NCBI GenBank assembly: GCA_037443945.1
Contig: JBBINH010000004.1
Span: 64,976 to 128,975, forward strand
Direction: 5' to 3'
Origin: Caldilineales bacterium
Lineage (GTDB): Bacteria; Chloroflexota; Anaerolineae; J102
DNA: 64,000 nucleotides
The notes under the pieces were generated by a model. It was given only the letters and a program-made list of their open reading frames with translations, was not told where the DNA came from and searched no databases. The stretch's first letter is position 1. Every line of letters begins with the position of its first letter. Of the stretch, positions 2,794 through 57,319 are shown one piece after another. The position numbers and the translations under genes were made by a program.

Positions 2794-3279
2794 ATGGTGA
2801 GATGGCTGCATGAACACGGTGAAGCTCGCCGGCGATGGATATTCGGAATGCTGGCCGTGGTGAGCGTTCTGATGCTCGCAGCTCAAGTATGGGCCACCCG
2901 AAAGGAGGCGTCGGCTCGCGAGTGGTCTGAGTTGTCCGAAGCGCGAGTTACACGAGAAGAAAAAGGAGCCGACGCCTCAGAGGGGGCGGTCTGCCGGTTC
3001 TCCGGACCGGCCCGGATGCAGCTGGCGCCGACCTCTCCCGGTACCCAAGTCGAAGCCTGGGTGGACGGAGAGAAGGTGGCCGAGACGGAGGTAGTCGGTC
3101 AGGGCGAGGAAAGCCTCTACTCCTTGATCCTAGACCGCCGCTACGCGGGCAAGACCGTGGTCTTCCGCTTTTCCGCTTATCCTCACCTCGGTGAGGCGGG
3201 ACGGGCCACCTGCGTGTTGGGTCAGGAGCAAGCCCTGACCCTGAGTGCCGAATCCCATCGCGGTTGTGGAGGTGGGTAG
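2794..3279 (+). CDS. Hypothetical signal-anchored protein.
   Basis: N-terminal hydrophobic segment (IFGMLAVVSVLMLAAQVWA). No recognisable catalytic motif. Tightly packed between the FmdE-like and Mrp genes. Confidence 0.4.
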   Translation: MVRWLHEHGEARRRWIFGMLAVVSVLMLAAQVWATRKEASAREWSELSEARVTREEKGADASEGAVCRFSGPARMQLAPTSPGTQVEAWVDGEKVAETEVVGQGEESLYSLILDRRYAGKTVVFRFSAYPHLGEAGRATCVLGQEQALTLSAESHRGCGGG

Positions 3280-4058
3280 TGAGTACCATCCGACACGCCA
3301 TCGCCGTAGCCAGCGGTAAGGGTGGTGTGGGCAAGAGCACCGTGGCGGTGAACCTAGCCGTGGCCCTGGCCGAGACCGGCGCCAAAGTGGGCCTGTTGGA
3401 CGGCGACATCTACGGCCCTTCCATCCCGGTGATGACGGGCTTGGCGGGACAGCATCCCCATTCACCCGACGGGGATCGGGTATTGCCGCTGATCAGTCAC
3501 GGGATCAAGTTGATGTCCATGGGCTTTCTCGTCGAGGAAGCCGAGTCCCTGGCCTTCCGGGGCCCTGTTGTCCACCAGGTGCTGCAGGAGTTCCTGCAAG
3601 ACGTAGAGTGGGACGACCTGGACTACCTGATCGTAGACCTGCCCCCCGGCACCGGCGATGCGGTGATCACCCTTATCCACTCCCTGCCTTTGAGCGGGGT
3701 CATCATCGTGAGTACTCCGCAGAACCTGGCCGTGGTCTCCGTCGTGCGTTGCGTGGCCCTGTTTCGGGAACGTGAAATCCCCATTCTGGGCGTCATCGAG
3801 AACATGAGCCAATCGATTTGCCCTCATTGCGGGGAGATACTCGACATCTTCGGTTCCGGGCACAAGGTCCGGGATATGTGCGCTTATTGGGAGATCCCGT
3901 TTTTGGGCGGTATACCCCTCGATCCGCGGGTGCGCGAGAGCGGGGACATGGGGATACCCGTAGTATTGCGCTTACCGAACTCCCCTGCGGGCCGGGCGCT
4001 GACGCGCATCGCCCAGACGTTAGAGGCCTGGCTCCCTATAGCCCACCGAGAGAGGTAA
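3279..4058 (+). CDS. Mrp/NBP35 (ApbC-like) family P-loop ATPase, Fe-S cluster carrier type (paralog 1).
   Basis: Deviant Walker A SGKGGVGKST and C-terminal CPHCG motif. GTG start preceded by GGAGGT. Confidence 0.8.
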   Translation: MSTIRHAIAVASGKGGVGKSTVAVNLAVALAETGAKVGLLDGDIYGPSIPVMTGLAGQHPHSPDGDRVLPLISHGIKLMSMGFLVEEAESLAFRGPVVHQVLQEFLQDVEWDDLDYLIVDLPPGTGDAVITLIHSLPLSGVIIVSTPQNLAVVSVVRCVALFREREIPILGVIENMSQSICPHCGEILDIFGSGHKVRDMCAYWEIPFLGGIPLDPRVRESGDMGIPVVLRLPNSPAGRALTRIAQTLEAWLPIAHRER

Positions 4059-4233
4059 CCAACCATGCCCACCGTCGGAATTCCCCTGCCGATGAGACCG
4101 ATCATGGCCTGCGGTTGTCTTGTCCGGTCAGGTGTTGGGCATTGACCCACCCGATCGGAAAAGCGTTTGTTGATAACTCCTACGACGGTTATAGCGTTGC
4201 GTTTATCCTGATTTTTTCGAAAAGGAGGCATTC

Positions 4234-6255
4234 ATGCTGAACATCCAAGTTCTCAACACCCATGTGTCCCAACGCCAGGGATTTGCATCGCAGAGCACCG
4301 TCCTGCCGGACACCTTCGTCCGCTGGCAGCTGGAAGCCCGGCACAAGATACATCAGGCCATCGCTAACGGCGGGCATCCCCGCCGGAACCCGGCCCACCT
4401 GCCGGTGATGATCACCTTCGAGGCCGAGGGCAGCTTTCCCATTCGCGTTGTCAGCAAGGGCGCCGGCTTCACCCCCCGAGACGAGAAGCTGCAGCCCTAC
4501 ATCGATCTGCTGGAAGAAACCATCGTCCGCTGCGAGGGCCGACCCTGGGAGGAGACCCTTTCCGACCGTGTGGCCGCCGTCCGGGCATTGCTCGATCATC
4601 CGGAGGACATCGATCTCCGCCGACTGGGCTTCTTGGAGATCTTCGGTAGCGGCACCTACCGCAACCTCCAACGCGACCCGCGCGTGGTGCTCCACTACAC
4701 CGGCGACGGCCCCGATTATCCCTCCTTCCAGATCAACGGCTATGTCGAGCTTTTGGATCAGGATGACCCCCGCTACCGCTACATCGCCCTGGCCCGCTTC
4801 ATTTTCGAGAGGGCACCCTTCCACCTGCCCCAGCCCGGTTACGCGGCCGGCTACCTGGTGTGGGTACACGAGGTCGCTGACAAGACGCCGTTCTCCCTAA
4901 TGACACAGCCCAACTTGTACAACATACCCCGCGCAACACCCAATCTGCAGCACGCAGTACGCAATACTCCCGCCGCCTCAGTGGAGCCGGCGCAAGAGGC
5001 TGTCACCTTAGCCGGTCCGGAGCAAGCAGACCCGCAGGAGGATGCGGTCACCTTTCGCGAGATATTGGTTCCCCTTGACAATTCCAAGTACAGCACCTGG
5101 GCCATGGAGATCGCACTCCAGATCGCCGGCGTGTACGGCTCCAAGGTCGTGGGCAACCACGTCTACGCCGCCCGCCTGCACGACAAACGTTTTCGCGATA
5201 TGGAACCGGGCCTACCCGAAGAGTACCAGGAACCGACCATCTTGGCCCACCAGCGGGAGCTGCATGACACGCTCATCGAGAAAGGGCTCAAGCTGATTTC
5301 CGACTCCTACCTGGAAGTTCTCAAAGCCCGGTGCCAGGAGGCCGGCCTGCGCTTCGAGGGCAAGACGCCTGAGGGCAAGAACTACGCCGAGTTGGTCCGG
5401 GACATTGAAACGAGCAGGTACGACCTGGTGGTGATGGGCGCGCGAGGCATGGGAGAAGTCTGGCGTCGAGGGAAGCGACGGGATCAGGTGCTGGGGAGCG
5501 TGTGTGAGCGCGTGGTGCGTCGGGTGAACCGTGACGTGCTGGTGGTGAAAGACGATCGCCCGCTGGGCGGTACCTTCGTGGTGGGGGTAGACGGCAGCGA
5601 TCGGGGCTTCGCCGCCCTGCGGGTGGCTCTGGCCCTGGCGGAGGCCACCGGCGCACGGGTGCAGGTGGTAGCCGTCTACGACCCCTTCCTGCACAAGGCG
5701 GTGTTCAACGAGCTGGAAGAGGTGCTGACCGAAGAGGCCAAACAGGTCTTCGACACCGAAGCCCAAAAGAAGCTCCACGACGAGTTGGTGGACAGCGGTA
5801 TCGCCCGGCTTTATGTGGAACACTTGCAGACGGCGCAACGCATCGCCGCAGAGTTGGGGGCGGAGATAGAGACACACCTGCTGGCAGGCAACCCGTATGC
5901 GGCCTTGTTGCGCCACATGGAAGAAGTGAAACCCACCCTGCTGCTCATTGGACGCACGGGGCTTCACGCCGACGAGCGCTTGGACATCGGCTCCAACGCC
6001 GAGAACCTGCTGCGGTTGGCTCCATGCCACGTGTTGCTGGTAGGGCGCATCTTCACCCCGACGTGGGCGGAAACGCGGCGGGTCGTTGAGGAAGGGCTGG
6101 CCTGGACACCCGAAGCGCTGGCGCGACTGGAGCGGGTGCCCGACTTCGTGCGGGGGATGGTGCGCAAGGCCATCGAGACCTACGCGCGGGAGCACGGGCT
6201 CGATGTGGTGACGGAAGAGACCGTCGTCGAAGCACGCCGGCGATTTGGCATGTGA
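4234..6255 (+). CDS. Multidomain protein: unknown N-terminal domain (~230 aa) + two universal stress protein (UspA) domains + C-terminal PCP_red (protochlorophyllide reductase BchB/ChlB C-terminal-type) domain.
   Basis: Usp-like blocks (ILVPLDNS...LVVMGARGMG...VLVVKD and FVVGVDGS...LLLIGRTG...HVLLVGR). C-terminus LAWTPEALARLERVPDFVRGMVRKAIETYAREHGLDVVTEETV matches the W(T)xEA..L..VP.FVRG.VR...E.YAR..G consensus of the BchB C-terminal domain. AAGGAGG RBS 5 nt upstream of ATG. Confidence 0.7.
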   Translation: MLNIQVLNTHVSQRQGFASQSTVLPDTFVRWQLEARHKIHQAIANGGHPRRNPAHLPVMITFEAEGSFPIRVVSKGAGFTPRDEKLQPYIDLLEETIVRCEGRPWEETLSDRVAAVRALLDHPEDIDLRRLGFLEIFGSGTYRNLQRDPRVVLHYTGDGPDYPSFQINGYVELLDQDDPRYRYIALARFIFERAPFHLPQPGYAAGYLVWVHEVADKTPFSLMTQPNLYNIPRATPNLQHAVRNTPAASVEPAQEAVTLAGPEQADPQEDAVTFREILVPLDNSKYSTWAMEIALQIAGVYGSKVVGNHVYAARLHDKRFRDMEPGLPEEYQEPTILAHQRELHDTLIEKGLKLISDSYLEVLKARCQEAGLRFEGKTPEGKNYAELVRDIETSRYDLVVMGARGMGEVWRRGKRRDQVLGSVCERVVRRVNRDVLVVKDDRPLGGTFVVGVDGSDRGFAALRVALALAEATGARVQVVAVYDPFLHKAVFNELEEVLTEEAKQVFDTEAQKKLHDELVDSGIARLYVEHLQTAQRIAAELGAEIETHLLAGNPYAALLRHMEEVKPTLLLIGRTGLHADERLDIGSNAENLLRLAPCHVLLVGRIFTPTWAETRRVVEEGLAWTPEALARLERVPDFVRGMVRKAIETYAREHGLDVVTEETVVEARRRFGM

Positions 6256-7133
6256 AAATGAAAACCTACCACGAGATCACCGGTGATGGCGGCTCGGACA
6301 TCCTGGGGCAGGTGAGGGCCCTGAAGGAACGGCTGGAGGCCCGCCTGAGCCGGATAGAAAACGTGATCGCCGTGATGAGCGGCAAAGGCGGTGTGGGCAA
6401 GAGCACGATCACCGCCAGCCTGGCGACCCTTCTCGCCGATCGGGGCTACACCGTCGGCGCGGTGGATGCCGATCTGAACGGCCCGGCTCTTGCCCGGATG
6501 CTGGGCGTGCACGGCCGGCAGGTGCGGCTCACCGCCGACGGCGTGGCGCCCGCCATCGGTGCGGCCGGCGTCCGCGTTATCTCCATGGACTTCTTCCTGC
6601 CTGACGAGGCTACCCCGGTCGCATGGAACCACCCCGGCGGGCTGGCGGCCGATACCACCGTCTGGCGCGGGACCATGGAGGCCACGGTGCTACGGGAGTT
6701 TCTGATGGACACTACCTGGGGGGAGTTGGACTTTCTCTTCCTGGACTTGCCTCCGGGGAGCGACCGTTTCGCCGCCGTGGCCGGCCTGCTGCCCCGGCTG
6801 GCGGGGGTAATCGTGGTCACCGTGCCCAGCCTGGTCTCCCAGGCGGTGGTGAAGAAAGCCATTACCGCCGCCCAGGAGCGGGGCGATCCCCTGCTGGGAG
6901 TGGTGGAAAACATGGCGGGCTATGTCTGCCCGGTCTGCGGCACGGTGAGCCCGCTGTTCCCCGGTGATGGGGTCCAGGAGATGGGGTTGCCACTGCTGGG
7001 CCGCATCCCCTTCGATCCACGCCTGGCGGAGGGGGCCGATGTCGGCCTACCTTTCGCCCTCACCCATCCCGATACGCCGGCTGCTCAAGCCCTGGCAGAA
7101 CTGACTACGGCCGTCGAAGGAGCGCTGTCATGA
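6252..7133 (+). CDS. Mrp/NBP35 (ApbC-like) family P-loop ATPase (paralog 2).
   Basis: SGKGGVGKST Walker A and CPVCG C-terminal motif. Start overlaps the stop of the upstream gene; the true start may be ATG at 6258. Confidence 0.8.
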   Translation: MKMKTYHEITGDGGSDILGQVRALKERLEARLSRIENVIAVMSGKGGVGKSTITASLATLLADRGYTVGAVDADLNGPALARMLGVHGRQVRLTADGVAPAIGAAGVRVISMDFFLPDEATPVAWNHPGGLAADTTVWRGTMEATVLREFLMDTTWGELDFLFLDLPPGSDRFAAVAGLLPRLAGVIVVTVPSLVSQAVVKKAITAAQERGDPLLGVVENMAGYVCPVCGTVSPLFPGDGVQEMGLPLLGRIPFDPRLAEGADVGLPFALTHPDTPAAQALAELTTAVEGALS

Positions 7134-7564
7134 AGTTCCTCTGTGTTCCCTGTGACGAACCCATGCAGGTGGTGGAAAGCGGTTCCCCGGATGAAACGGG
7201 GAGCTTGCGCGTTCTCTTCCGCTGTCCCCGTTGCGATCACACCACCGCCATGCTGACCAACGCCGGTGAGACGCAACTGGTGCGCTCCCTGGGGGTGCGT
7301 ATCGGTGGCAAGCCGGTGGATTCTGCGGGGCGACTGGAAAACCTGCGTGCCGGGTTGACCCGAATCCGGACCGATGCCCTGCAGACCGAGGAAGAAGCCG
7401 AACCGGTGTGGACGCCGGCAGCGCTCCAACGCCTGAACGCGACGCCCTCCTTCGTCCGGCCCATGATCCGCCAGGCCTACACCGACTATGCCCGGCAACA
7501 CGGCCTGCGCGAAATCACCCCGGAGGTGATGGATGCGGCCCGACAGGCGTTGGGGATGGGCTGA
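7130..7564 (+). CDS. Small protein: N-terminal Cys4 zinc ribbon + C-terminal PCP_red domain.
   Basis: CVPC...CPRC motif. C-terminus VWTPAALQRLNATPSFVRPMIRQAYTDYARQHGLREITPEV is a PCP_red domain. ATGA overlap with upstream Mrp stop indicates translational coupling. Confidence 0.65.
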   Translation: MKFLCVPCDEPMQVVESGSPDETGSLRVLFRCPRCDHTTAMLTNAGETQLVRSLGVRIGGKPVDSAGRLENLRAGLTRIRTDALQTEEEAEPVWTPAALQRLNATPSFVRPMIRQAYTDYARQHGLREITPEVMDAARQALGMG

Positions 7565-7641
7565 TCGAACGCACGTGATCCCGTCACCATAAGCGGTTCT
7601 TATCCGGGCACTCCACCTCGATGAGGAAGAAGTGACTCAGG

Positions 7642-8103
7642 ATGGAAGCCTCTTCGGAGAACAAAGGGTCTGCTTTGGAGGCGACCTTAGGGGCCCGACG
7701 GTTCCGCCAGGCCGGCTGGACGTACCTGCTGGCCGGTACGGCCGTCATCCTCTTCACCCTGACCGCTGGCCTGGTGCCTCCCAGCCGCCTGCCTCGTCTA
7801 TTCCTGCTGCTGCCCGGTCTCGGTTTCGTGATCCTGTTCGGCGCCCTTATCATCCTGGCCCCCCGGCTTTGGCGCCGGCCGTGGACGGTCGGCTTCAGCC
7901 GGTGGCTGGCGCGTCTGTTGGCCCTCACCAACGCCGGCCGAACCTGCCTTTTCCTCCTCAATGCTGCCGGACTCAACGTCCACGTTTTCCGCTCATCCGG
8001 ACCGGCTTTTTTCATGGTACGCACGGACCCGGAGCCGCTCTTCCTGGTCAACGCCGGCCTCACCGGTCTCATTGCGGTGATGCTGGCCCGCGCCGGCCGG
8101 TGA
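7642..8103 (+). CDS. Hypothetical integral membrane protein (about 4 TM helices).
   Basis: Hydrophobic segments throughout. Same strand, between the PCP_red protein and the radical SAM gene. Confidence 0.45.
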   Translation: MEASSENKGSALEATLGARRFRQAGWTYLLAGTAVILFTLTAGLVPPSRLPRLFLLLPGLGFVILFGALIILAPRLWRRPWTVGFSRWLARLLALTNAGRTCLFLLNAAGLNVHVFRSSGPAFFMVRTDPEPLFLVNAGLTGLIAVMLARAGR

Positions 8104-8143
8104 AGCCCTCTTCGTAAGCCCAAGAAGTCCGGGAGGTCGAGAA

Positions 8144-9448
8144 ATGCCACAGGACGATACGCACCATAGAACACGCAGTATGCGATTTACCCCCTCCATC
8201 ATCTCCTGGAACCTGACCCGGCTGTGCAACGAGCGCTGCCGGCACTGCTACCTGAACGCCGGCCCTTACGCCGACCGCTCCGACGAGTTCTCCACCGATG
8301 AGTGCCTAGAGGTGCTGGCCCAGCTCCGGGAGTTGGCGCCGGGAGCGTTGATCATCTTCACCGGTGGGGAGCCCCTGCTACGGGAGGACATCTACGACCT
8401 GGTGCGGGCGGCCCGTGAGGCGGGTTTCACCGTGGTGGTGGGTACCAACGGCATCCGCCTCACGCCGGAGCGGCTGGCCCGACTGCGGAAGGCCGGGGTG
8501 CAGGGGGTGGCCCTCAGCCTGGACTCGCTGCGCCCGGAAGTGCATGATGCCTTTCGAGGGCGACAAGGGGCATGGCAGGCGACCGTCGCCAGCATCGAAC
8601 ACCTGCGAGAGGATGGGCTGCCCTTCGTGCTCCAGACCACCGTCAGCCGTGCCAACTTGAAGGAGCTCCCCGACCTGGTGGCCTTCGCTGCCGCGAAGAA
8701 GGCACGCACCCACAACCTCTACTTTCTGGTCCCCACCGGCCGCGGTCAGACTTTCACCAGCGACATCACGCCCCACGAGTACGAGGCGTTGTTGCAGGAC
8801 ATCCGCCGCTGGCAGGAGGTCTACGCCGACCGCTTGCTTCTCTCGGCCAAGTGCGCGCCCCATTACCAGCGCGTGTTGTGGGAGTACGATCCCGATTCCC
8901 CCTACCTGCGCGCCTTCGACCAGGGGGCCGGCGGCTGCCCGGCGGCGATGCATTACCTGGGTATCCGCCCCAACGGCGATGTGACCCCTTGCCCTTACCT
9001 ACCGGTCTACGGCGGCAACCTGCGCCGGCAGTCTCTGGCGGCTATTTGGCACGAGTCGGAACTGTTCCGCCGCCTGCGGCAGCGCCACGCCTTGGCCGAC
9101 CGCTGCGGCGTCTGCGAGTTTCGCCTTCTGTGCGGGGGATGCCGGGCCCGCGCCTATGGTGTCACCGGAGATGTGATGGGGCCGGATCCCTGGTGTGAGT
9201 ACGAGCCGGGCGCCCGGGGCGGCCAATGGATCACCCCGGACGGAGCCGTAGCCTACGGCCTTGCCGTGGAGGGCGAGTTGACCTGGACACCGGAGGCGCA
9301 GCGGCTGCTGGAGGTTATCCCCTCCTTTGTGCGGGGACGCGTCCGGCACAGCGTAGAGGCTTACGCCCGTCAACATGCCTTATCCCTGGTCACCATCGAG
9401 GTGATGCAACAGGCCCGGAAGAAACGGGCCCTCCTGCCGGACTCATGA
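8144..9448 (+). CDS. Radical SAM enzyme with SPASM-type auxiliary cluster domain (AhbC/AhbD/NirJ-like) fused to a C-terminal PCP_red domain.
   Basis: CNERCRHCY radical SAM CxxxCxxC motif in a IISWNLTRLC context resembling tetrapyrrole-modifying rSAMs. Downstream Cys-rich SPASM region (CPAAMHY...CPYLP...CGVCEFRLLCGGCRARAY). C-terminus LTWTPEAQRLLEVIPSFVRGRVRHSVEAYARQHALSLVTIEV is a PCP_red domain. GGGAGG RBS 7 nt upstream of ATG 8144. Confidence 0.8.
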   Translation: MPQDDTHHRTRSMRFTPSIISWNLTRLCNERCRHCYLNAGPYADRSDEFSTDECLEVLAQLRELAPGALIIFTGGEPLLREDIYDLVRAAREAGFTVVVGTNGIRLTPERLARLRKAGVQGVALSLDSLRPEVHDAFRGRQGAWQATVASIEHLREDGLPFVLQTTVSRANLKELPDLVAFAAAKKARTHNLYFLVPTGRGQTFTSDITPHEYEALLQDIRRWQEVYADRLLLSAKCAPHYQRVLWEYDPDSPYLRAFDQGAGGCPAAMHYLGIRPNGDVTPCPYLPVYGGNLRRQSLAAIWHESELFRRLRQRHALADRCGVCEFRLLCGGCRARAYGVTGDVMGPDPWCEYEPGARGGQWITPDGAVAYGLAVEGELTWTPEAQRLLEVIPSFVRGRVRHSVEAYARQHALSLVTIEVMQQARKKRALLPDS

Positions 9449-9596
9449 ACAACAACTCGGCTCTTGGCTGCCATCTATCGACCCGGCTGCCCGCCCCTGA
9501 GCGCTGAGAGCACATCTGCCTCCTTCGCGAGGACACTCTATCGGCCAACCGTCGTTAGAGACGACCGGCATATGGCCTGACCGGCCTCCGACCTAT

Positions 9597-9628
9597 TTGA
9601 CAAAAGCCCAAATTGTGGTATCTATAAT
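9597..9628 (+). promoter_or_regulatory. Consensus-like sigma70 promoter (TTGACA ... TATAAT) in an AT-richer intergenic patch.
   Basis: TTGACA at 9597-9602. TATCTA (16-bp spacer, preceded by TGG) or TATAAT at 9623-9628 (20-bp spacer). No annotated + strand gene for ~460 nt downstream. Confidence 0.3.
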
Positions 9629-9697
9629 TGAGGGCACAACAACGGGACTCATACTACGCGCTACGAAGCCCTCACCGGACCCCCGGCGGCCCGCTTG

Positions 9698-9814
9698 GAC
9701 TCGGTTCTATCTTTTGTTGGTGAGAACGTTTGAACGTTAGAACGTTTGAACGTTAGAACGTTTGAACGTTATGCCTGCCTACCCCTCTTGCGCCAACACA
9801 CTCCGGAACCATCT
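9698..9814 (+). mobile_element. MITE-like nonautonomous element, copy 1 (about 117 bp), with imperfect right end and internal 8-bp tandem repeat.
   Basis: Left terminus GACTCGGTTC. Shares more than 90% of its sequence with copies at 31931-32024 (inverted) and 45307-45408. Flanked by CCCGCTTG on both sides (9690-9697 and ~9815-9822) consistent with an 8-bp TSD; the right TIR is degraded (GGAACCATCT instead of GGAACCGAGTC). Confidence 0.6.
9724..9771 (+). repeat. Tandem repeat (GAACGTTT/GAACGTTA)x6 inside MITE copy 1; copy number varies between MITE copies (6, 3 and 4 units).
   Basis: Perfect alternation gaacgttt gaacgtta x3 at 9724-9771. Same array with 3 units in copy 2 and 4 units in copy 3. 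AACGTT core is palindromic. Confidence 0.85.
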
Positions 9815-10091
9815 CCCCGCTTGCTTGATCGATCGGCATTGCCAACGTTATGTTACCGAGCGCGCGTTATGAAGACGGCAAAACCGAGAGCGGCCGGACG
9901 GCATTTCAGGCTCAGGCGCATCGGGCATGGTAGCATCACCCGGTCGCCCCTACCGCCTTACCGTTATGTTCATGGTCCAGACCGAGTTGGACCGATTCGG
10001 AAGACGTAGGTCTGGGATCTCGAATCGGTTTGGCGGTGGAAGAGGGGCCTACCGATCACCCAGATGCACTCCTGCAAGAGACACCGAGTTT

Positions 10092-12647
10092 ATGAAAAGC
10101 CTTTATCCCAAAATTATGCTGCTCGTCGGTGGTGCTTTTGCGGTCGTCATGACGGCTATTGTGGCCTTCGTCTACGTCTCAGGGAGCCGGCAGATCGAGC
10201 AAGAGGGGTTGGCACGGGCAGAAACCTTGAATCGCATGGCCTTCGAAGTCCTCTACGCCTCCATGCGCCAAGGAGGTGGTCGCGAGGGCAATCGCCGGGT
10301 CATCGCCCGGCTGCAGGAGACGGGAGCTTTCACCACCCTGCGGGTGGTGAAGGGCGAGCCGGTGGTCCGGCAGTTCGGTGCGGAGCCGGAGGAGTTACCT
10401 CGGGATGCGTTGGAGCGTCGCGCTCTGGCCGGCGAGGAAGTACGAGAGGTTCGCCGGGAAGGAGGCTATCGCATCGTACGCTACGTTACCCCCCTGCGGG
10501 TGCAGGTGGAATGCCAGCGCTGTCATCAGGCCCAGATCGGTGAGATCAACGGGGTGATCTCCACCGAGATTTCGTTGCAGGCCTACGAAAGCACCCTCCG
10601 GCAACGACGAGACGTGTTGCTCCTGACCCTAGGGGGCGGATTGCTGATTCTGGGTCTGCTGACCTTTTATGCCTTGCAGCGCCTGGTCATCCGTCCTTTG
10701 CAGACGATCCAACGAGGTGCCACGGCCATTGCCCAGGGGGCGCTCGACCACCGTCTGGAGGTGCGCACCGGTGACGAGCTCGAGGTCCTGGCCAGGGAGT
10801 TCAATACCATGGCCGCACGCTTGCAGGAATCCTACGTCGTTCTGGAACAGAAGGTGGCCGAGCGCACGCAGGAGCTGGTTGCCCTCAACCAAGTGGCCGA
10901 AGCCGTCAACCGTTCGTTGGACCTGAAGGAAACGTTGCCCGAGGTTCTGGAACAAGTGATGGCGCTGATAGGAGCGGAGGCAGCGGATATCCGAGTGATC
11001 GAGAACGGTACCTTGTGCGTGCGGACCAGCCGGGGGCTCTCTCCCGCCTTTCTGGAACAGGACGCTCGGGTGCCGGTGGGTCACTGCCTATGCGGTATGG
11101 CTGCACTGACGGGCCGCGCCATGATGGCCGAGGACCTGCACAGGGAGCACCCCGAAGCGGAGTGTTGCCTGGCGGCGGGATTTCGTTCCAGCCTCAGCGT
11201 ACCGGTGGCGGCCAAGGGGCAGATGGTGGGGGTGATCCACCTGGCCAGCTCCCAACCCTACGCCTTCAACGCTCGGCAAGAGGCCATCCTCACGGCAGTG
11301 GGTCAGCATGTCGGATTAGCCATCGAGAAAGTACGCCTCTACGAAGGGGAACGCTCGCAGCGTCAGGTGGCCGAGATTCTGCGTCGGGCATCCCAAACCT
11401 TGAGCGCCAGTCTGAATCTGGACACGGTCTTGCACACCCTTCTCGAACAACTGGGGCAGGTTCTGATCGTAGACGCGGGGCTTATCCTGCTTTGTGAGGG
11501 CGATCACCTGCGGGTGGCGGCGGTGCGTGGCCGGCCTGAACTGAGGATGGAACGGCTGTTGGGCTATCAAATCCCGTTGTCCGCCAATCGGGATTTCTAC
11601 CGGGTCATTCAGGAGAAACGCGTGCTGACTTTCTGTCAGCCCGGCCGACGGCCTCCCTTTGCCGATGGTTTCCAACCCATCGAAGAGGTCGATTGGTGTC
11701 TGGTAGTCCCGTTGTTGCGTGGGAGCGAAGTCATGGGGTTGCTGGCCGTGGAACAACTGAACCACTGTTACGACAAGGAAGAAGAACCTCAGATTGCCAT
11801 GGCCTTTGCCAACCATGCGGTCATGGCCATCGAAAACGCCCGCCTGTACGCCGAGATCAAGACGCTGAACGAGGAACTGGAGGCGCGGGTAGAACGCCGG
11901 ACGCAAGAGCTGAACGAGGCAAGGGAAGTTCTGGCACGCCAGGCGAAACAACTCCGCCACCTGCTGAACAAGACCATTCGTATCCAGGAAGAGGAACGGG
12001 ATCGCATCGCTCAGGACATCCACGACGGGATCTCCCAGTTGATTATGGGTGCCCTCTACGAAACCCAGGCCGCCAAGGTCTCTCTGGCGGAGCGCCCCGA
12101 AGTGGCGCGAAAAAAACTGCAGAGCGCCCAGGAGATCTTGAAACAGCTCAAAACGGAAATGCAGCGCATCATTTACGACCTACACCCCGCCGTGCTCAGC
12201 ACTTCCGGGCTGGTGCCGGCACTGGAGGCCTGGATCGCTGACTACCAGGTCCACACCGGAGTTTCCTGTGCTTTTACCATCTCCGGTTCGGTCCGGCGCC
12301 TGACACCTGAGCGAGAGCGAGCGGTATACCGTATTGTTCAGGAGGCGCTCCACAACATAGCCCAACACGCCCAGGCCCATCAAGCGTGGGTGATGCTGAC
12401 ATTCACCCCGGAAACGCTGCGTATCACTATTGATGACGATGGATGCGGCTTTGACCGCTTGGCGGTGCTGAACGACTCACGCAATCACCTGGGGCTGGTG
12501 AGCATGCAGGAACGCGCTCAGAGCATCGGCGGTGAGTTGGAAATCTATTCTCGGCCGGGATATGGCACCCGCATTCTCGTCCAGGTGCCGGCTAACGACC
12601 ATTCGGAAGGCGAGGGAAATGGAGCGGATTCGGATCCTTATTGCTGA
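10092..12647 (+). CDS. Sensor histidine kinase: TM anchor + HAMP + three GAF domains + HisKA_3 (NarL-type) dimerisation/phosphoacceptor + HATPase_c.
   Basis: HAMP-like segment after TM. H-box IAQDIHDGISQ. ATP-binding blocks (QEALHNIAQHA, DDDGCGFD, GLVSMQERA). Start chosen at ATG 10092 (MKSLYPK..., hydrophobic N-terminus). Confidence 0.8.
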   Translation: MKSLYPKIMLLVGGAFAVVMTAIVAFVYVSGSRQIEQEGLARAETLNRMAFEVLYASMRQGGGREGNRRVIARLQETGAFTTLRVVKGEPVVRQFGAEPEELPRDALERRALAGEEVREVRREGGYRIVRYVTPLRVQVECQRCHQAQIGEINGVISTEISLQAYESTLRQRRDVLLLTLGGGLLILGLLTFYALQRLVIRPLQTIQRGATAIAQGALDHRLEVRTGDELEVLAREFNTMAARLQESYVVLEQKVAERTQELVALNQVAEAVNRSLDLKETLPEVLEQVMALIGAEAADIRVIENGTLCVRTSRGLSPAFLEQDARVPVGHCLCGMAALTGRAMMAEDLHREHPEAECCLAAGFRSSLSVPVAAKGQMVGVIHLASSQPYAFNARQEAILTAVGQHVGLAIEKVRLYEGERSQRQVAEILRRASQTLSASLNLDTVLHTLLEQLGQVLIVDAGLILLCEGDHLRVAAVRGRPELRMERLLGYQIPLSANRDFYRVIQEKRVLTFCQPGRRPPFADGFQPIEEVDWCLVVPLLRGSEVMGLLAVEQLNHCYDKEEEPQIAMAFANHAVMAIENARLYAEIKTLNEELEARVERRTQELNEAREVLARQAKQLRHLLNKTIRIQEEERDRIAQDIHDGISQLIMGALYETQAAKVSLAERPEVARKKLQSAQEILKQLKTEMQRIIYDLHPAVLSTSGLVPALEAWIADYQVHTGVSCAFTISGSVRRLTPERERAVYRIVQEALHNIAQHAQAHQAWVMLTFTPETLRITIDDDGCGFDRLAVLNDSRNHLGLVSMQERAQSIGGELEIYSRPGYGTRILVQVPANDHSEGEGNGADSDPYC

Positions 12648-13260
12648 CGATCATCCTATTGTGCGCCAGGGTATTCGTAGCCTGCTGACCCAGTACGATG
12701 ACCTAGAGGTGGTCGGTGAGGCTGGCACCGGACCGGCCGTGCTGCAACAGGCGGCGCGGCTCAAACCGGATGTTATTCTGTTGGATGTACGCATGACCGG
12801 CGCCAACGGCATCGAAATCGCGCGCCAACTACGCCGGGAACACCCGGAAATCCGCATCATCATCCTGACCACGTACGATGATGAAAAGTATCTCTACGGG
12901 GCACTTCAGGTGGGTGCTCAAGCCTATCTCTTGAAAGATGTTTCCCTGGAGACGCTTCCCGCCGCGATCCGGGCAGTCTATCAGGGGGAACGGCTTCTGA
13001 GCCCCCTGTTGGTGGACAAAGTGTTGCGCGAATTTCAGAGCCTGGCCATCGAAAAGCTCCGCCGCGATGCCGGCTTGTCCGAGGAAGAGCTGCGCATCCT
13101 GCGGGCTATGGCCGAGGGCGCGAACAATAAAGAGATCGCCGAGGAGTTCTTCTGGAGCGAGGTGACCGTCAAGAAAAAGGTGCAGGAAATCCTGGTGAAG
13201 CTCAACGCCGAGAACCGCACCCAGGCCGTAGCCCAGGCCATTCGCCAGGGTTTGATCTAG
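12619..13260 (+). CDS. NarL/FixJ-family response regulator (REC + LuxR-type HTH).
   Basis: ILIADDHPIVRQG...LLDVRMTG receiver motifs. C-terminal LuxR HTH (NKEIAEEFFWSEVTVKKKV). Overlaps the 3' end of the kinase gene. Confidence 0.85.
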   Translation: MERIRILIADDHPIVRQGIRSLLTQYDDLEVVGEAGTGPAVLQQAARLKPDVILLDVRMTGANGIEIARQLRREHPEIRIIILTTYDDEKYLYGALQVGAQAYLLKDVSLETLPAAIRAVYQGERLLSPLLVDKVLREFQSLAIEKLRRDAGLSEEELRILRAMAEGANNKEIAEEFFWSEVTVKKKVQEILVKLNAENRTQAVAQAIRQGLI

Positions 13261-26773: not shown

Positions 26774-26856
26774 TCGGGGGCGCCCGCCCTCCTTGAAAGG
26801 CCCCAAGCGTGTGTCTGGCGAGCTCCCTGCACTCTTGCGCCTGCGTTGCCTCCGAC

Positions 26857-28032
26857 ATGACTTCGCTCGCTTTGTATCTCCATATCCCCTTTTGTCGGCG
26901 TAAATGTCCCTACTGCGATTTCAACACCTACGCCGGTCGTGAGGGGCGCTACGCAGCCTATGCGCAGGCCCTGGCCACCGATCTGGCCCGCGAGGGCTTG
27001 CGCCGGGGGCGCCCGGAAGTGCGCACGGTTTTCGTCGGCGGCGGCACTCCCACGGTGTTGGCGCCGGCGCAGTTGGAGAGGATTTGGTCGGGTTTGCAGC
27101 AGGGCTTTCGTCTGTTGCCCCAGGCCGAGATCACGGTAGAGGCCAATCCGGGTACGGTTGACCGCGAACGTTTCCAGGTCTTACGGCGGTTGGGCGTCAA
27201 CCGGCTGAGTCTAGGGGTGCAGTCGTTCGACGCCGACGAGCTGCGCTTTTTGGGCCGCATCCACGATGTCGACGACGCCGTCGTCGCCGTGAATTTGGCC
27301 CGCCGTGTGGGTTTCACCAATATCAATCTCGACCTGATATTCGGCCTGCCCAACCAGAATCCCCAGACCTGGGCGCGCAACCTGGAACGGGCGCTTGCCC
27401 TGGCGCCGGAGCATCTTTCCCTGTATAGCCTCACCGTAGAAGAGGGCACGCCGCTGGCGACATGGGTGGCCCAGGGGCGGGTGCCTGCGCCCGATCCTGA
27501 CCTGGCAGCCGAGCTGTACGAACTGGCCTGTGAGCGGTTGGAAAGGGCGGGCTATCATCACTACGAGATCTCGAACTGGGCCCGGGGTCCGTTGGAAGCC
27601 GACGGTTTGCCCCGGTTTGCCTCGCGCCACAATCTGGTCTATTGGCGGAACGAGGCCTATCTCGGTTTCGGCCCGGGCGCCCACAGCCATGAGAACGGCC
27701 GGCGTTGGGCCATCATCTCGGCACCGGAGGACTACATGCGCAGCGTCACCGTCGGTCCACCTCCGTGCGCGTTTGAGGAAATCCTCTCACCGGCCCTGGT
27801 CATGGGCGAAACGATGATGTTGGGCTTGCGTCTGGTCGAGGTGGGTGTCTCTCGCGAGGTGTTTCGACAGCGTTTTGGTTGCGATATCGCCGAAGTCTAC
27901 GGACAGGTTCTGGCCGAGTTCGGCGCACGCGGTTTGTTGGAGGTGACACCGGAGCGGGTACGGCTCAGCCGTCGGGGCTGGTTACTGGGGAATCGGGTGT
28001 TTGCCGCCTTCCTACCGGATGAAACGGAATGA
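26857..28032 (+). CDS. hemW: Radical SAM heme chaperone HemW (HemN-like coproporphyrinogen oxidase family).
   Basis: LYLHIPFCRRKCPYCDF radical SAM motif at N-terminus and HemN C-terminal domain. Confidence 0.8.
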   Translation: MTSLALYLHIPFCRRKCPYCDFNTYAGREGRYAAYAQALATDLAREGLRRGRPEVRTVFVGGGTPTVLAPAQLERIWSGLQQGFRLLPQAEITVEANPGTVDRERFQVLRRLGVNRLSLGVQSFDADELRFLGRIHDVDDAVVAVNLARRVGFTNINLDLIFGLPNQNPQTWARNLERALALAPEHLSLYSLTVEEGTPLATWVAQGRVPAPDPDLAAELYELACERLERAGYHHYEISNWARGPLEADGLPRFASRHNLVYWRNEAYLGFGPGAHSHENGRRWAIISAPEDYMRSVTVGPPPCAFEEILSPALVMGETMMLGLRLVEVGVSREVFRQRFGCDIAEVYGQVLAEFGARGLLEVTPERVRLSRRGWLLGNRVFAAFLPDETE

Positions 28033-36091: not shown

Positions 36092-38206
36092 TCAAGGCGT
36101 CTCCGCGGGGAACAGACGCAGCGCCGGATCGCCCAGGAGCGCAAAGGTGAGGAGGACATCTCGCTGTCCCCCCTGTCCGGGGTCGAGGCGGTGCAACGCT
36201 GCCCGCCAGGCCTCGCCAAGGGTGGCCTCATGAAAGAGATGATGGCCGAAAAGCGCCTGCGCCAGCACCTCCTGATCGCCGGGATAGGTTTCGGCCGTAG
36301 GCACCAAGGCCGCCACGATGCCGCTCGTGGGGCTCAGGACCAGCGCTTCGCCCAGGGATTGGCGTTGCGGATGGATGAAGTAGCCGCTGAGACAGGCCCA
36401 CATCAGCACAAGCCCGAGCCGATCTCCGGCCCGCAACTGCGCTACATCTTCCGTATGCAGGATGCCCTCTTGCGCCCATAAGTCGAGGGCGCCGTGTCCC
36501 ACGTAATTCAGCAGCCGTCGGCCTTCGTTTAGACTTTGTCGCAGAGCGACGCGCACATCGGCATCCACACCTATCGTCAGCGTCGTCGGGTGAAAGGCCT
36601 CCGGTAGGAGGGAAAGGAGACGGGCGTTGAAGTCGCGGAAGAAGGGGTCGTCATCATCGCTCACGAAGAGCATCTGCCGACGCCATGGGCCCGGCGGCAG
36701 CGCCTGCTCGTAGGTGAGCGTCTTGGCGACCATGGTGGCCACATCGGCCGGACTTTGCGCCGGAAAGCGGCCCACGGCCAGGTCGGGCCGTTCGTCGCCG
36801 TCCAGGTCGGCCAAGGCGGCGTCGCCTGCCGTTGCTCCTATGACTTGGGTGTGTACGGTGGCCGTCGGCACCAGGTTCTTGTAAGGTCCTTGCAGGTAGT
36901 CATAGGGATCATAACTGGCATCGCCTACCAGGAGTACAAAACGGGGCGTCGGCGGTGGCCATTCGGCTACGGCTTGGCGCAAAAAGGCCCTGATAGCCGC
37001 CGCCGTGAGGTGCCCGGCGCCGAACGCATCGGCAATTTGATCGGTGGTGACAAGCGCAGTGCGCAACCCCTGCTGTTGCCGCCAACGCAGGAGCGGTTCT
37101 ACCGCCGCCGTCAGGGAGGGATGGGCAATGGTGATATAATCGGCCCCGTCTGGGACGGCGGGAAGAGGCGCTATCGGCCGAATCGTGCGCGGGGACAACA
37201 ACGCCCCGGCGGTGGCCGCCCAATAGTGACCGGGGGTCTGGCTCGTCCGGCCAAAACGCAGCCGATAGCTCCCACCCATCTTGCTTACGAGGCCATCCGT
37301 CAGACGGCGTGGGGGCGTGGCGGCTACATCCCACAGCTCGATATCGGGGCCGGAAAACCCGCCGATCTCGACCACCGGCGCCGTGGTGACAAAGGCAATG
37401 GTGTCGTCTGTCGCCACCAGGCTACGGGTGTAGGTGATGACCACCCGGTTGAGATACATCAGTTCGACCGGCGCTCCGGTGTCGCCCGGCGCCGTCAGAC
37501 TCAGGATGTTCGAGCCTTCGCGCAGGGTGCCGGCGGGAACGGAGAGAACCAGGCGGCGGCGGCCGCGGCCATCCCAGGTCTCCTCGGCCAGAAAACGCCC
37601 GTTGAGGGCCAAACGCAGCCGATGGTCAGGCGCAACGGCCGCCTGGCTGGCCGACCACAGCTCGATGGCGAGCTGAGCCGGTTCGCTCGTCGGTCGGGAG
37701 AGCACGACTTCTGCGCTCAACTCGGCCGGCGCCAGCAGCCGATCACCCACCCAGGGGTCGCCCTCGGCGATGGCGGGCAGATAGGTGCGCCGGAACACGG
37801 CTTCCACGACGGCCAGCCCTGTCGTCGTCGCCGGCCCGCCGCGCGGCGGGGCCGGTTCGACCATCGCCACCTGACCCTGGGTCCGGCCGAGTCGATAAAC
37901 CGCCGGGCCTGCGGCCGGCACGCGACCGGGAAAACGCAACTCCCGGTTGCGGCCATGGCCGATGAGCGCAAAGGGCACCGGCCGGTTGCCGTCGTTCAGA
38001 GACAAAGCCTCGGCCTCCAGCCGGACCAAGTCCCAGCCGAAGGGCAGCAGATCGCGGCGCTCGAGGCGATAGAGCCCGTCCCGTTCGAGCACAAGGACCA
38101 AACCTTCGGCGGCCGGCGATGCCGGTGTGGGCCGGGCGCAGGCAACGGTTACCAGGCCGATGAGCAGGCTCCACACGATGCCGAGACGCCTGTAGACGGT
38201 GTTCAC
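36092..38206 (-). CDS. Secreted peptidase C25 (gingipain-type cysteine peptidase) family protein, paralog 1.
   Basis: N-terminal signal peptide. Catalytic-dyad context LLNYVGHGALDLW...(33 aa)...MWACLSGYF reproduces the gingipain His/Cys spacing. GTG start at 38204-38206 forms a GTGA overlap with the upstream gene stop; the longer ORF reaches 38242. Confidence 0.7.
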   Translation of the reverse strand: MNTVYRRLGIVWSLLIGLVTVACARPTPASPAAEGLVLVLERDGLYRLERRDLLPFGWDLVRLEAEALSLNDGNRPVPFALIGHGRNRELRFPGRVPAAGPAVYRLGRTQGQVAMVEPAPPRGGPATTTGLAVVEAVFRRTYLPAIAEGDPWVGDRLLAPAELSAEVVLSRPTSEPAQLAIELWSASQAAVAPDHRLRLALNGRFLAEETWDGRGRRRLVLSVPAGTLREGSNILSLTAPGDTGAPVELMYLNRVVITYTRSLVATDDTIAFVTTAPVVEIGGFSGPDIELWDVAATPPRRLTDGLVSKMGGSYRLRFGRTSQTPGHYWAATAGALLSPRTIRPIAPLPAVPDGADYITIAHPSLTAAVEPLLRWRQQQGLRTALVTTDQIADAFGAGHLTAAAIRAFLRQAVAEWPPPTPRFVLLVGDASYDPYDYLQGPYKNLVPTATVHTQVIGATAGDAALADLDGDERPDLAVGRFPAQSPADVATMVAKTLTYEQALPPGPWRRQMLFVSDDDDPFFRDFNARLLSLLPEAFHPTTLTIGVDADVRVALRQSLNEGRRLLNYVGHGALDLWAQEGILHTEDVAQLRAGDRLGLVLMWACLSGYFIHPQRQSLGEALVLSPTSGIVAALVPTAETYPGDQEVLAQALFGHHLFHEATLGEAWRAALHRLDPGQGGQRDVLLTFALLGDPALRLFPAETP

Positions 38207-39261
38207 GGCCCGTCTCTCCGGAGCGTGCGGCGATAGAACCATCCGCCGATGGCGATCAAAGCGCCGGCCACAGCCAAGGCGGCCAGACCGATGCGCACAA
38301 AAAGACCGGCTTCGCTTCCGTTCCGGTGCGAGGACGCCGCCGTTGTGGGCGGCAGACGCACGCCGAAGGCGTTGGGCGACGGGATCGATGTCACCCTCTC
38401 CGATGTGACGGTTATGGGCAACGAGACCGTTGCGGTCACGTCGGCGGCAAGCGTTGGCGCCGGCATCGCCGTGGGGGGCCGAGGTGAGGGCATCGGCGCC
38501 TCGACCCCGGCCGCAGGGGTGGACTCGACCACCGTCGGCGCCGTTGCGCCCGCACCGGGCATGGCCGTCGGTACGGGTGCGACCGTTGGCGGCACCGTGG
38601 GCGTGTCCCCAGGTCTATCCGCAGGGGGTGGCAGGGTCGAAGCCGATGTCGGCGTGGAGAGGAGCGATGGCGTGGCCGTTGATGGGGTTGGATCGGAGGT
38701 TACCGGTGTGGGTGTGGGCGTAGGCAGCGGGGTGGCCGTGGGTGAGGGTGTGGGCGTGGGTGTCGCCGTGGGCGAGGGTGTGGCCGTCGCCGTAGGGGAG
38801 ATGCGCACCGTCGGCGAAGGGGTCGGTGTGAGGGTAGGGAGAAGGGGGGTGAAGGTTGGCGTGGGTGTGGGGGGAGTAGCTCCGGGCAAGGATACCATCA
38901 CCGGGGGATGCGAAGTGAGTCGGCCGTAGCCGTCCATGTCGTCAAGCCGATACCAGTACGTATGGCCCGGCAGCACGGTGTTATCCTCGAAGCGATAATA
39001 GGCGCCTGTGACCACGTCCCCACGGGCCGGGATTTGATGGACCTGTTGCCAGGGCCCGTTTTCGTTCTCCGCGCGTTGGACCAGGAACAGCAGATTGTCG
39101 GGTTCGGTGGCCGTCTCCCACTCGATGAGAATACGCCTCGCTTCCGGCTGCGCCGTGGCTCGGAAGTAGAGCAGGGTCACACTGGCCTGGACCATGGCGG
39201 TCAGGGTCAGGTTCAAGCAAAACAGGCCGACGAGAACGGCAAGGCGCCGACCATACCTCAT
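38203..39261 (-). CDS. Pro/Thr-rich cell-surface protein: signal peptide, small beta (FN3-like) domain, long PT-rich linker, C-terminal TM helix with basic tail.
   Basis: N-terminal hydrophobic leader. More than 100 aa of PTPTPSPTATP low complexity. C-terminal LFVRIGLAALAVAGALIAIGGWFYRRTLRR anchor. Sandwiched in-operon between two C25 peptidase paralogs. Confidence 0.5.
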   Translation of the reverse strand: MRYGRRLAVLVGLFCLNLTLTAMVQASVTLLYFRATAQPEARRILIEWETATEPDNLLFLVQRAENENGPWQQVHQIPARGDVVTGAYYRFEDNTVLPGHTYWYRLDDMDGYGRLTSHPPVMVSLPGATPPTPTPTFTPLLPTLTPTPSPTVRISPTATATPSPTATPTPTPSPTATPLPTPTPTPVTSDPTPSTATPSLLSTPTSASTLPPPADRPGDTPTVPPTVAPVPTAMPGAGATAPTVVESTPAAGVEAPMPSPRPPTAMPAPTLAADVTATVSLPITVTSERVTSIPSPNAFGVRLPPTTAASSHRNGSEAGLFVRIGLAALAVAGALIAIGGWFYRRTLRRDGP

Positions 39262-39263
39262 GG

Positions 39264-56074: not shown

Positions 56075-56119
56075 GGCCAGCCAGGGGAGAAGGGAAGATG
56101 AGCAAGCATTCAGGACCGC

Positions 56120-57055
56120 TTAGGAAAGCCCAGGAGAACTTGCCAACTCATTGAAGACGGCTTCCAGGGTGCGTGTTTCGCGACGCAGTTCGCGCACCGG
56201 CCATCCCTGAGCCTGGGCGAGACGGTAAATGGCCCAGGTGAGATCGCGACCGTCGGCCTGGCGGGCAAAGACGCGATAGGCCGGAAACCCATCGACCGAA
56301 CGCTCGGCGCGCACCTCGCCGATTCCGTCCAGCTCGCGCAGGGCCTTGGCAACGCCATCCGTCGCCTCTTGCAAGACGAGGACGGCGCTGCTCGTCGCCG
56401 CCAGCTCGGTCAGGCGAGCATCGGCCCGCACGCGACCGTTCATCAGGATAATGACCCGATCGCAGACCTGTTCCACTTCGGGCAGAATGTGGGTCGAGAG
56501 TAGAACGGTGCTGTGTTGGGCTAACTGCCGGATCAGGTTGCGGATCTCGATGATCTGGGTGGGGTCGAGACCGACGGTCGGCTCATCCAGGATGAGCAGC
56601 CGGGGCCGATGGAGGATGGCCTGGGCCAGGCCCACGCGTTGGCGATAGCCCTTGCTCAATTCCCCGATACGCCGGGTGAGGTGGGTTTCCAGGCCGGTGG
56701 CATAGACGGCGGCGGAAATACAGGCCCTTTGCTCTTCCGGCGGGATGCGCCGCAGATCGGCCATGAGCTTAAGATAGCCCTGCACCGACAGCTCATGATA
56801 CAAGGGCGCATTCTCGGGCAGATAACCGATAAGCGCCTGGACCTCATGGCGTTGGCTCAACACATCGCATCCGGCAATGGTGGCCGTGCCCTCGTCGGGC
56901 TGCAGATAGCCGGTGAGGATTTTCATCAACGTCGTCTTACCGGCCCCGTTGGGCCCCAACAGACCGACGATCTCGCCGCGTTGGATGGTGAACGAGACAT
57001 CGTCCAATGCCTGAATCTCGCCGTAGGCTTTCGAGAGATGGGAGACGACGATCAC
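56120..57055 (-). CDS. ABC transporter ATP-binding protein (GldA-like).
   Basis: Walker [18 protein letters not shown] signature, ILDEP Walker B. GTG start with GGAGGA RBS 5 nt upstream. Confidence 0.85.
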
Positions 57056-57319
57056 AGCTGTCCTCCAAAAATCAGCCCCGCCTCCGGAATGCCGGGCATC
57101 GGTAAGGGCAGGGCTTGATACACAACCAGGTAAAGGCAAGCCCTTCGATTGTACATAACCCGGACGGAATAGGCAAAGCCAATACGCCCAAACCGGCAGA
57201 CCTGCAGCTCCTTCAGGGTGTTCACGGCTGCTCGGTCACACCGCAAAACCAGGCCGGCACGGCTGCCCGGCTCCATTCTGCCACGCCGTTCCAACCCGGT
57301 GATGGTTACGGCGAGAGGA

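Follow-up and report, generated by a model that had tools for sequence, protein, structure and literature searches.

What does a radical S-adenosylmethionine (SAM) enzyme do when it ends in a PCP_red domain, the small domain found at the C-termini of the BchB and ChlB subunits of dark-operative protochlorophyllide reductase (DPOR)? The question is raised by a gene in a 64,000-nucleotide stretch of a Caldilineales bacterium (contig JBBINH010000004.1, positions 64,976 to 128,975; here called the window). The gene (8144..9448, + strand) is an intact, uninterrupted open reading frame (ORF) for a 434-aa protein in which three Pfam domains scored above their gathering scores (GA): Radical_SAM at residues 23-181 (PF04055; nt 8210..8686; E 6.5e-31, 108 bits), SPASM at residues 265-324 (E 2.9e-11, 43.9 bits) and PCP_red at residues 381-425 (PF08369; nt 9284..9418; E 1e-15, 57.9 bits versus a cut-off of 32.5), the last of which covers the whole model (positions 1-45). 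Eight cysteines between C237 and C351 mark out the SPASM region (8852..9196), and a poorly conserved linker, variable in length and sequence among homologues, joins it to PCP_red (residues 356-380; 9209..9283). This is a genuine fusion that chance is far from explaining, and it bears out what the sequence-only reading had observed. As set out below, the protein belongs to a widespread family of AhbD-like enzymes, and its activity is most likely the ordinary last step of heme synthesis and not new chemistry.

A protein identical to the 434-aa product is present in public assemblies (P0001), and the nearest named homologues come from metagenome-assembled genomes (MAGs) of Anaerolineae, Caldilineae and other Chloroflexota. 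The window itself was 99.8% identical to contig DAOUAH010000018.1 of MAG GCA_034433475.1; about 125 nt of intergenic DNA 3' of the gene (window 9698-9822) are missing from that contig. An AlphaFold2 (AF2) model of the protein had a mean predicted local distance difference test score (pLDDT) of 87.9 and a predicted template modelling score (pTM) of 0.80, with pLDDT falling to about 58-64 at residues 361-380 in the linker and below 50 at residues 1-11. Given this low score at the N-terminus, and given that homologues begin about 13 residues later than the annotated start, the true start of the gene may be Met13 (nt 8180). A scan of 3900-10100 found no promoter-like sites, and terminator-like sites did not exceed the shuffled expectation.

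The cysteines of the core point to a tetrapyrrole enzyme. The CX3CX2C motif (C28/C32/C35, nt 8225-8248, in the context IISWNLTRLCNERCRHCY) and the eight C-terminal cysteines (C237, C265, C283, C321, C324, C330, C333 and C351) make up eleven cluster ligands, all invariant in an alignment of 26 diverse homologues. The SPASM spacing, CX27CX17CX37CX2CX5CX2CX17C, is in exact agreement with the full SPASM motif of AhbD from methanogens and sulfate reducers (CX20-33CX17CX36-37CX2CX5CX2CX17-35C), which binds two auxiliary [4Fe-4S] clusters (Fix et al., PMC10452713). Homology with these proteins shows what the window's enzyme would hold, namely one [4Fe-4S] cluster that cleaves SAM and two auxiliary [4Fe-4S] clusters in its full SPASM domain. 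Against NCBIfam the best model was AhbD (TIGR04545, 298.1 bits), aligned end to end (residues 19-355 with model positions 1-339), followed by NirJ2 (TIGR04055, 288 bits) and TIGR04053 (268 bits), with NirJ (TIGR04051, 173.8 bits, cut-off 515), AhbC (153 bits) and PqqE (144 bits) well behind. When the core (residues 1-360) was searched against 1.84 billion 50%-identity representatives and the best 150 were kept, all ten unfused representatives that were classified, drawn from across the remainder of the tree, scored highest as AhbD or NirJ2; one of them passed the NirJ2 cut-off (P0211, 533 versus 500 bits), another was an AhbD-AhbB fusion (P0184), and none was a peptide maturase. Together, these data indicate that the protein very probably belongs to the AhbD family of tetrapyrrole enzymes, which is where the sequence-only reading had put its core, next to AhbD and NirJ.

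The same searches bear on whether the protein could be a SPASM maturase, either of ribosomally synthesized and post-translationally modified peptides or, in the manner of the anaerobic sulfatase-maturating enzyme (anSME), of the neighbouring molybdoenzyme or cytochromes. We consider this very improbable. The AF2 model resembles the radical SAM-SPASM structures of SkfB, PqqE, SuiB and anSME, which are its closest solved folds, although no AhbD structure exists for comparison. In addition, a molybdopterin oxidoreductase and a NarJ-like chaperone are encoded upstream in the window's lineage. Maturase models, however, gave at most 144 bits, the ten classified neighbours in sequence space contained no maturase, no conserved small precursor-like ORF emerged from unbiased clustering of neighbouring genes, and the molybdoenzyme and NarJ neighbours occurred in loci of Chloroflexota only. 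It is because of this confinement that we rejected the molybdoenzyme as a target of the radical SAM enzyme. Clustering with peptide-modifying SPASM enzymes and a failed PCP_red profile match, the outcomes that would have spoken against the tetrapyrrole assignment, were both looked for, and neither was seen.

Membership of the AhbD family does not make the protein an AhbD in the strict sense. No NCBIfam cut-off was reached (500 bits for AhbD, 500 for NirJ2 and 395 for TIGR04053), and by the NCBI criterion it is not an AhbD equivalog but, as judged from sequence comparison, a member of an AhbD-like sister clade. In a neighbour-joining tree the fused proteins formed one clade with a bootstrap of 79/100, which included four embedded unfused and possibly truncated sequences; bootstrapping gave no resolved sister group (candidate sister 0/100). 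Like AhbD of Methanosarcina barkeri and Desulfovibrio vulgaris (EC 1.3.98.6), these proteins have the CX3CX2C motif, the eight-cysteine SPASM spacing and the end-to-end match to TIGR04545. They differ from it in forming a separate clade, in carrying a linker of about 25 residues and PCP_red, in having no AhbA, AhbB or AhbC nearby, in their hosts, which are neither archaea nor sulfate reducers, and in their partners, which are of the USP (universal stress protein), Cys4 and Mrp types. NirJ2, the AhbD-type paralogue of Firmicutes, and the TIGR04053 radical SAM/SPASM proteins score close to AhbD, and both families lack PCP_red.

The fusion is a large, widespread and conserved family and not a rarity. 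Among the nearest 120 clusters at 90% identity, which reach down to about 49% identity, 119 combined Radical_SAM, SPASM and PCP_red, the exception being a partial sequence. With a PCP_red hidden Markov model of our own, the domain was detected in 33 of the best 150 core matches, in some of them as a tandem array of two to four. When one genome per species was scanned, 80 loci with the fusion came out, in Anaerolineales, Vicinamibacteria and other Acidobacteriota, Poribacteria, Nitrospinaceae, Nitrospirales, Gemmatimonadota, Methylomirabilota, Planctomycetota (among them the anammox genera Brocadia, Scalindua and Anammoxibacter) and others, and the fused clade as a whole spans Chloroflexota, Nitrospirota, Nitrospinota, anammox bacteria, Poribacteria, Gemmatimonadota and Acidobacteriota. 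Proteins with two to four tandem PCP_red domains were most conspicuous in anammox bacteria and other Planctomycetota (L020, L026, L033, L042 and L046; also P0126, P0128, P0131, P0141, P0148 and P0191). The combination had been called undescribed, and this holds for the literature: our searches found no publication on a radical SAM-PCP_red fusion or on PCP_red outside DPOR, and nothing that links AhbD or coproheme to anammox bacteria, Nitrospira or similar hosts. It does not hold for the databases, in which a large family is already present, mostly under the name 'radical SAM protein', with one member called 'heme b synthase' and another 'AdoMet-dependent heme synthase' (P0088, JGI).

Given an AhbD-like core, we asked which heme pathway the fused enzymes might serve. 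The gene neighbourhood was surveyed over 10 kb at 86 non-redundant loci, both with queries taken from the window's genes and by unbiased all-against-all clustering. Five loci encode a HemY-family protein (TIGR00562, 203-237 bits versus a cut-off of 97.85), and they do so in three arrangements: directly 5' of the radical SAM gene in L004 (Sulfidibacter corallicola), L006 and L010, directly 3' of it in L091, and 4.4 kb upstream in L015. In L015 a gene for heme o synthase (CtaB; 272 bits versus a cut-off of 210) lies directly 3' of the radical SAM gene, and six further loci have one within 10 kb, making seven of 86. AhbA/B-like genes and a second radical SAM gene of the AhbC/NirJ type were found at none of the loci. 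The second radical SAM gene in L048 is HpnH of hopanoid synthesis and not AhbC, and an apparent duplicate of the fused gene in L047, where the contig mirrors itself around the radical SAM gene with the same genes reversed on both strands, is most likely an assembly artefact. No nir genes were apparent among the recurrent neighbour clusters that were inspected, in which no search was aimed at them.

The absence of AhbA, AhbB and AhbC across these loci argues against the classical siroheme-dependent (AHB) route. That the fused protein is simply the AhbD of that route with an extra tail is quite improbable: AhbD and NirJ2 are its best models and an AhbD-AhbB fusion stands among its close unfused relatives, but the HemY-family genes at five loci belong to the coproporphyrin and protoporphyrin routes, and the AHB pathway has been described in archaea and sulfate reducers, to which these hosts do not belong. 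Reviews hold that AhbD or an AhbD-like enzyme performs coproheme decarboxylation in some organisms that use the coproporphyrin pathway, and the CgoN paper still calls the oxygen-independent enzyme of Bacillaceae unknown (PMC10965808). The literature that we examined contained no characterized AhbD-like enzyme of this kind from outside siroheme-pathway organisms.

We lean, by a modest degree, towards the more specific proposal that the fused clade comprises coproheme decarboxylases of a HemY-type heme pathway. As predicted from family membership and gene context, the enzyme would oxidatively decarboxylate two propionates of iron-coproporphyrin III (coproheme) to vinyls without oxygen and so form heme b. 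The HemY-type, coproporphyrin-dependent route would end with this reaction, in which the enzyme would replace or accompany the H2O2-dependent decarboxylase ChdC (HemQ). The proposed reaction and the position in the pathway would be the same as for ChdC, but fold and chemistry are unrelated, as ChdC uses H2O2 and the radical SAM enzyme would use SAM-derived radicals in the absence of oxygen. The heme b so formed would supply the bd-like oxidases, the cytochromes and, by way of heme o synthase, the heme-copper oxidases that are encoded nearby, and the position of the gene beside operons for respiratory heme proteins would reflect co-regulation or local supply. In proteobacteria, hemN beside the cbb3 oxidase genes is a precedent for a heme gene near a respiratory operon.

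The role of the C-terminal domain is a separate matter. By phmmer, the PCP_red segment matched the solved C-termini of BchB and ChlB (2xdq_B residues 451-507, E 6e-9; 3aek_B residues 470-521), and it also matched the stand-alone PCP_red structures 2kru and 2l09, solved by nuclear magnetic resonance. About 50 residues align without gaps to these proteins and share the signature WT.EA...L..IP.FVR....E.YAR. In the AF2 model the domain is a predicted three-helix unit (residues 383-390, 394-410 and 418-429) that follows the low-confidence linker; across the 26 aligned homologues W381, A385, P393 and E405 are invariant and F395, R397 and A408 nearly so. The sequence-only reading had treated it as a tetrapyrrole cap, on the ground that the C-terminal domain of BchB contacts the propionate of protochlorophyllide. 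In the literature that we examined we found no support for this premise, although PCP_red may still make such a contact: in the cryo-electron microscopy study of DPOR, the element that contacts protochlorophyllide in trans is a long BchB helix at residues 398-420 (PMC12022308), whereas the stretch to which PCP_red aligns is 470-521 in Rhodobacter capsulatus BchB and 476-532 in the R. sphaeroides chain. The setting also departs from DPOR, in that PCP_red here sits on a radical SAM enzyme and not on a nitrogenase-like subunit, reaches up to three copies per radical SAM protein in the fetched loci and up to four in other representatives, and occurs several times per operon on unrelated proteins.

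These other carriers of PCP_red are among the most regular neighbours of the gene. The most constant one, at 61 of the 86 loci, encodes a USP protein with one to three PCP_red domains (USP-(PCP_red)1-3), on the same strand and with a median gap of -4 nt. Mrp ATPases (40 loci) and small Cys4-PCP_red proteins (39 loci) follow, and all three kinds are mostly adjacent to the radical SAM gene and on its strand. In L043 and L045 an Mrp ATPase, a Cys4 knuckle and PCP_red lie in one uninterrupted ORF, a fusion that points to joint action of Mrp and the small PCP_red protein. Three-copy USP proteins carry, between PCP_red copies 1 and 2, a rubredoxin-like knuckle of the rubrerythrin type (CxxCG...CPxC; PF21349, 29.6 bits on the isolated segment versus GA 26.5, and 24.4 bits in the whole protein), a counterpart to the separate Cys4-PCP_red gene that the window has. 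Examples of such knuckle-bearing USP-USP-PCP_red x3 proteins are encoded in L079 (7731-9863), L021 (4321-6294) and L013 (353-2602), and their USP part is very strongly conserved between phyla. A CopD-like four-helix membrane protein was found at 36 loci, all from Nitrospirales and Poribacteria, and a ferredoxin at nine.

Each operon has three to eight PCP_red domains, which fall into conserved classes. We compared 270 PCP_red domains from the loci by their nearest neighbour in other loci: this neighbour was again borne by a radical SAM protein for 86 of 88 radical SAM-borne domains and by a Cys4 protein for all 36 Cys4-borne ones, and copies 1, 2 and 3 of the USP proteins each formed a class of their own. 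Within classes the identity was 0.47-0.69, and between most classes it was 0.27-0.39. By sequence, these paralogues are of long standing and do not replace one another, which is what specific contacts with partners would lead one to expect.

Because the classes are conserved, non-interchangeable and shared by the operon partners, we tentatively favour a docking or assembly role for PCP_red, in which the small three-helix unit, carried on a flexible linker, would be no tetrapyrrole cap; a part in binding or handing off the tetrapyrrole is a serious though less likely alternative. In AhbD chemistry, the SAM cluster has to be reduced and the electron from the substrate has to be taken up by an acceptor. 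Docking could bring to the enzyme the USP protein, as an ATP-sensing or nucleotide-binding regulator; the Cys4 knuckle with its PCP_red, as a small metal or redox centre and possibly an electron carrier; and the Mrp-type ATPase, as a source of Fe-S clusters for an enzyme with three of them.

Several observations weigh against the proposal of a coproheme decarboxylase with a docking tail. The scores of 298 bits (AhbD) and 288 bits (NirJ2) are far under the equivalog cut-off of 500; the clade is therefore separate, and its reaction could differ. HemY is present at only five of the 86 loci and CtaB at only seven, and commoner respiratory neighbours are a cytochrome c-EB_dh protein (28 loci) and a bd-like oxidase (23 loci), a frequency that could mean a dedicated cofactor role and not the housekeeping synthesis of heme b. 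In PCP_red the alignment shows no conserved Cys or His that would suggest a ligand, and the case for docking consists of domain sharing and paralogue-specific conservation only.

Several of these observations would fit a different explanation, in which the enzyme carries out a new modification of heme or of another iron tetrapyrrole and, with its PCP_red, USP and Mrp partners, forms a maturation system for bd-like oxidases (of the OR-N/OR-C type) and cytochrome c-EB_dh proteins. The distinct clade, well under the AhbD and NirJ2 cut-offs, would suit it, and so would the bd-like and EB_dh genes, which are often directly adjacent and whose synteny extends over Chloroflexota, Gemmatimonadota, Acidobacteriota, Binatia, Rhodothermales and one anammox genome. 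The partner set of USP, Cys4 knuckle, Mrp, ferredoxin and CopD-like proteins is, moreover, more elaborate than any reported for AhbD. Yet no bd-like gene lies within 10 kb at about 30 Nitrospirales and 6-8 Nitrospinaceae loci, the adjacency of HemY and heme o synthase elsewhere points to plain heme b, the cysteine motif and the closest relatives are those of AhbD and NirJ2, and co-regulation, as for hemN and the cbb3 genes, simply explains a heme gene in a respiratory operon. The new tetrapyrrole-modifying activity that had been suggested for this protein is weakened and not needed to explain the data, and we retain it as a fairly unlikely alternative.

A more far-reaching idea, to which we give a similarly low probability, is that a multi-protein machine not described before is held together by PCP_red as its shared connector, and that this machine would produce heme b, or else a modified heme, in the absence of oxygen and pass the product straight to heme proteins. 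Its parts would be the AhbD-like radical SAM enzyme, the USP-(PCP_red)n protein with its knuckle, the Cys4-PCP_red protein, the Mrp ATPase and, in some phyla, the CopD-like protein; its recipients would be bd-like oxidases and the NxrC/EB_dh-type heme proteins of nitrite oxidizers, anammox bacteria and their relatives.

In the window, the radical SAM gene is the last of fifteen same-strand genes, three of which carry PCP_red. The first 5.8 kb of this cluster lie before the window start and were read from a near-identical contig (L092, 1-9046): they encode an unclassified molybdopterin oxidoreductase (895 aa), a four-cluster Fe-S subunit (198 aa), a hypothetical protein (192 aa), a NarJ-like chaperone and a cytochrome c. 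The molybdoenzyme fits no curated family, its best NCBIfam match being Fdh-alpha at 257 bits versus a cut-off of 666. The cluster is similar to the accessory gene sets of nitrite oxidoreductase in Nitrospina, Nitrospira and Kuenenia (PMC3578206), but its beta subunit is of a short type.

Within the window, and all on the + strand, the cluster continues with the 3' end of a bd-like oxidase gene (10-927), a di-heme cytochrome c (924-2132), an FmdE protein with a zinc finger (2135-2785), a hypothetical protein and a 259-aa Mrp/ApbC-type ATPase (3279..4058; Pfam ParA/NUBPL 309.6 bits; NCBIfam MrpORP 281 and ApbC 274 bits, under the cut-offs). The window's own USP-PCP_red protein follows, a 673-aa protein of PNPOx-like/Usp/Usp/PCP_red architecture (4234..6255; Pfam Usp 132 bits, PCP_red 65.4 bits) for which no database record was found and whose N-terminal PNPOx-like region is a weak match (PNPOx_N, 20 bits, below GA). 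Next come an Mrp/NBP35-type P-loop ATPase with a CPVC motif, from a family of Fe-S cluster carriers (6258..7133; Pfam ParA/NUBPL 228.7 bits; MrpORP 232.7 and ApbC 146 bits, both under the cut-off), and the 144-aa Cys4 (CxxC...CxxC) PCP_red protein (7130..7564; PCP_red 56 bits). Directly 5' of the radical SAM gene, a gene call at 7642..8103 predicts a 153-aa membrane protein. It had no Pfam or NCBIfam match, jackhmmer gave no link to the CopD-like neighbour of Nitrospirales and Poribacteria, and homologues were present at five loci only; whether it belongs to the module is uncertain.

The CopD-like protein itself has about 170-190 aa and a sub-threshold similarity to CopD/DUF4149 (23.7 bits versus GA 32.1). 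It is encoded directly downstream of the radical SAM gene in Nitrospirales (L051-L081, L090) and directly upstream in Poribacteria (L017-L044). Protoporphyrinogen dehydrogenases of the HemJ type are small heme-binding membrane proteins of similar size. Further recurrent neighbours in the survey were heme-copper oxidase subunit I (18 loci) and a GNAT acetyltransferase of about 280-310 aa, which has no obvious role in heme synthesis and occurs at 13 loci of Acidobacteriota-like genomes (L004 11765-12616, L006 9416-10279, L010 9320-10165, L015 6228-7106 and nine more).

Possible regulators of the cluster are encoded directly downstream of the module, namely a sensor kinase of HAMP/GAF/GAF/HisKA_3 architecture and a response regulator of the NarL type (9927-13260, +). 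Among the window ORFs scanned, the only other gene related to heme synthesis encodes a radical SAM heme chaperone of the HemW type and lies some 17 kb away from the fused gene (26809-28032, +; TIGR00539, 312 bits versus a cut-off of 205). Elsewhere in the window, two PorU-like genes (models of the type IX secretion sortase, under cut-off) and genes for GldA/GldF/GldG-like ABC transporters lie at 36092-41546 (-) and 53186-57139 (-), names that are unexpected in a Chloroflexota-like genome.

If the enzyme does perform the ordinary last step of heme synthesis, the gain is a corrected annotation, to AhbD-like heme synthase with accessory proteins, and no new principle. Even so, the fused clade provides a concrete and widespread candidate for the oxygen-free coproheme decarboxylase outside siroheme-pathway organisms, and its carriers are groups of ecological importance, most of which grow slowly or are uncultured: Nitrospira, Nitrospina, anammox bacteria, Poribacteria, Gemmatimonadota, Vicinamibacteria and Anaerolineae-like Chloroflexota. 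The family also gives a first way into the function of PCP_red, a small domain for which structures have been solved. More interesting than the enzyme is the unexplored network of PCP_red partners around its gene: if these proteins do form a machine connected by PCP_red, DPOR would carry, in its PCP_red, a single borrowed copy of a domain that serves tetrapyrrole enzymes in general for docking or hand-off.

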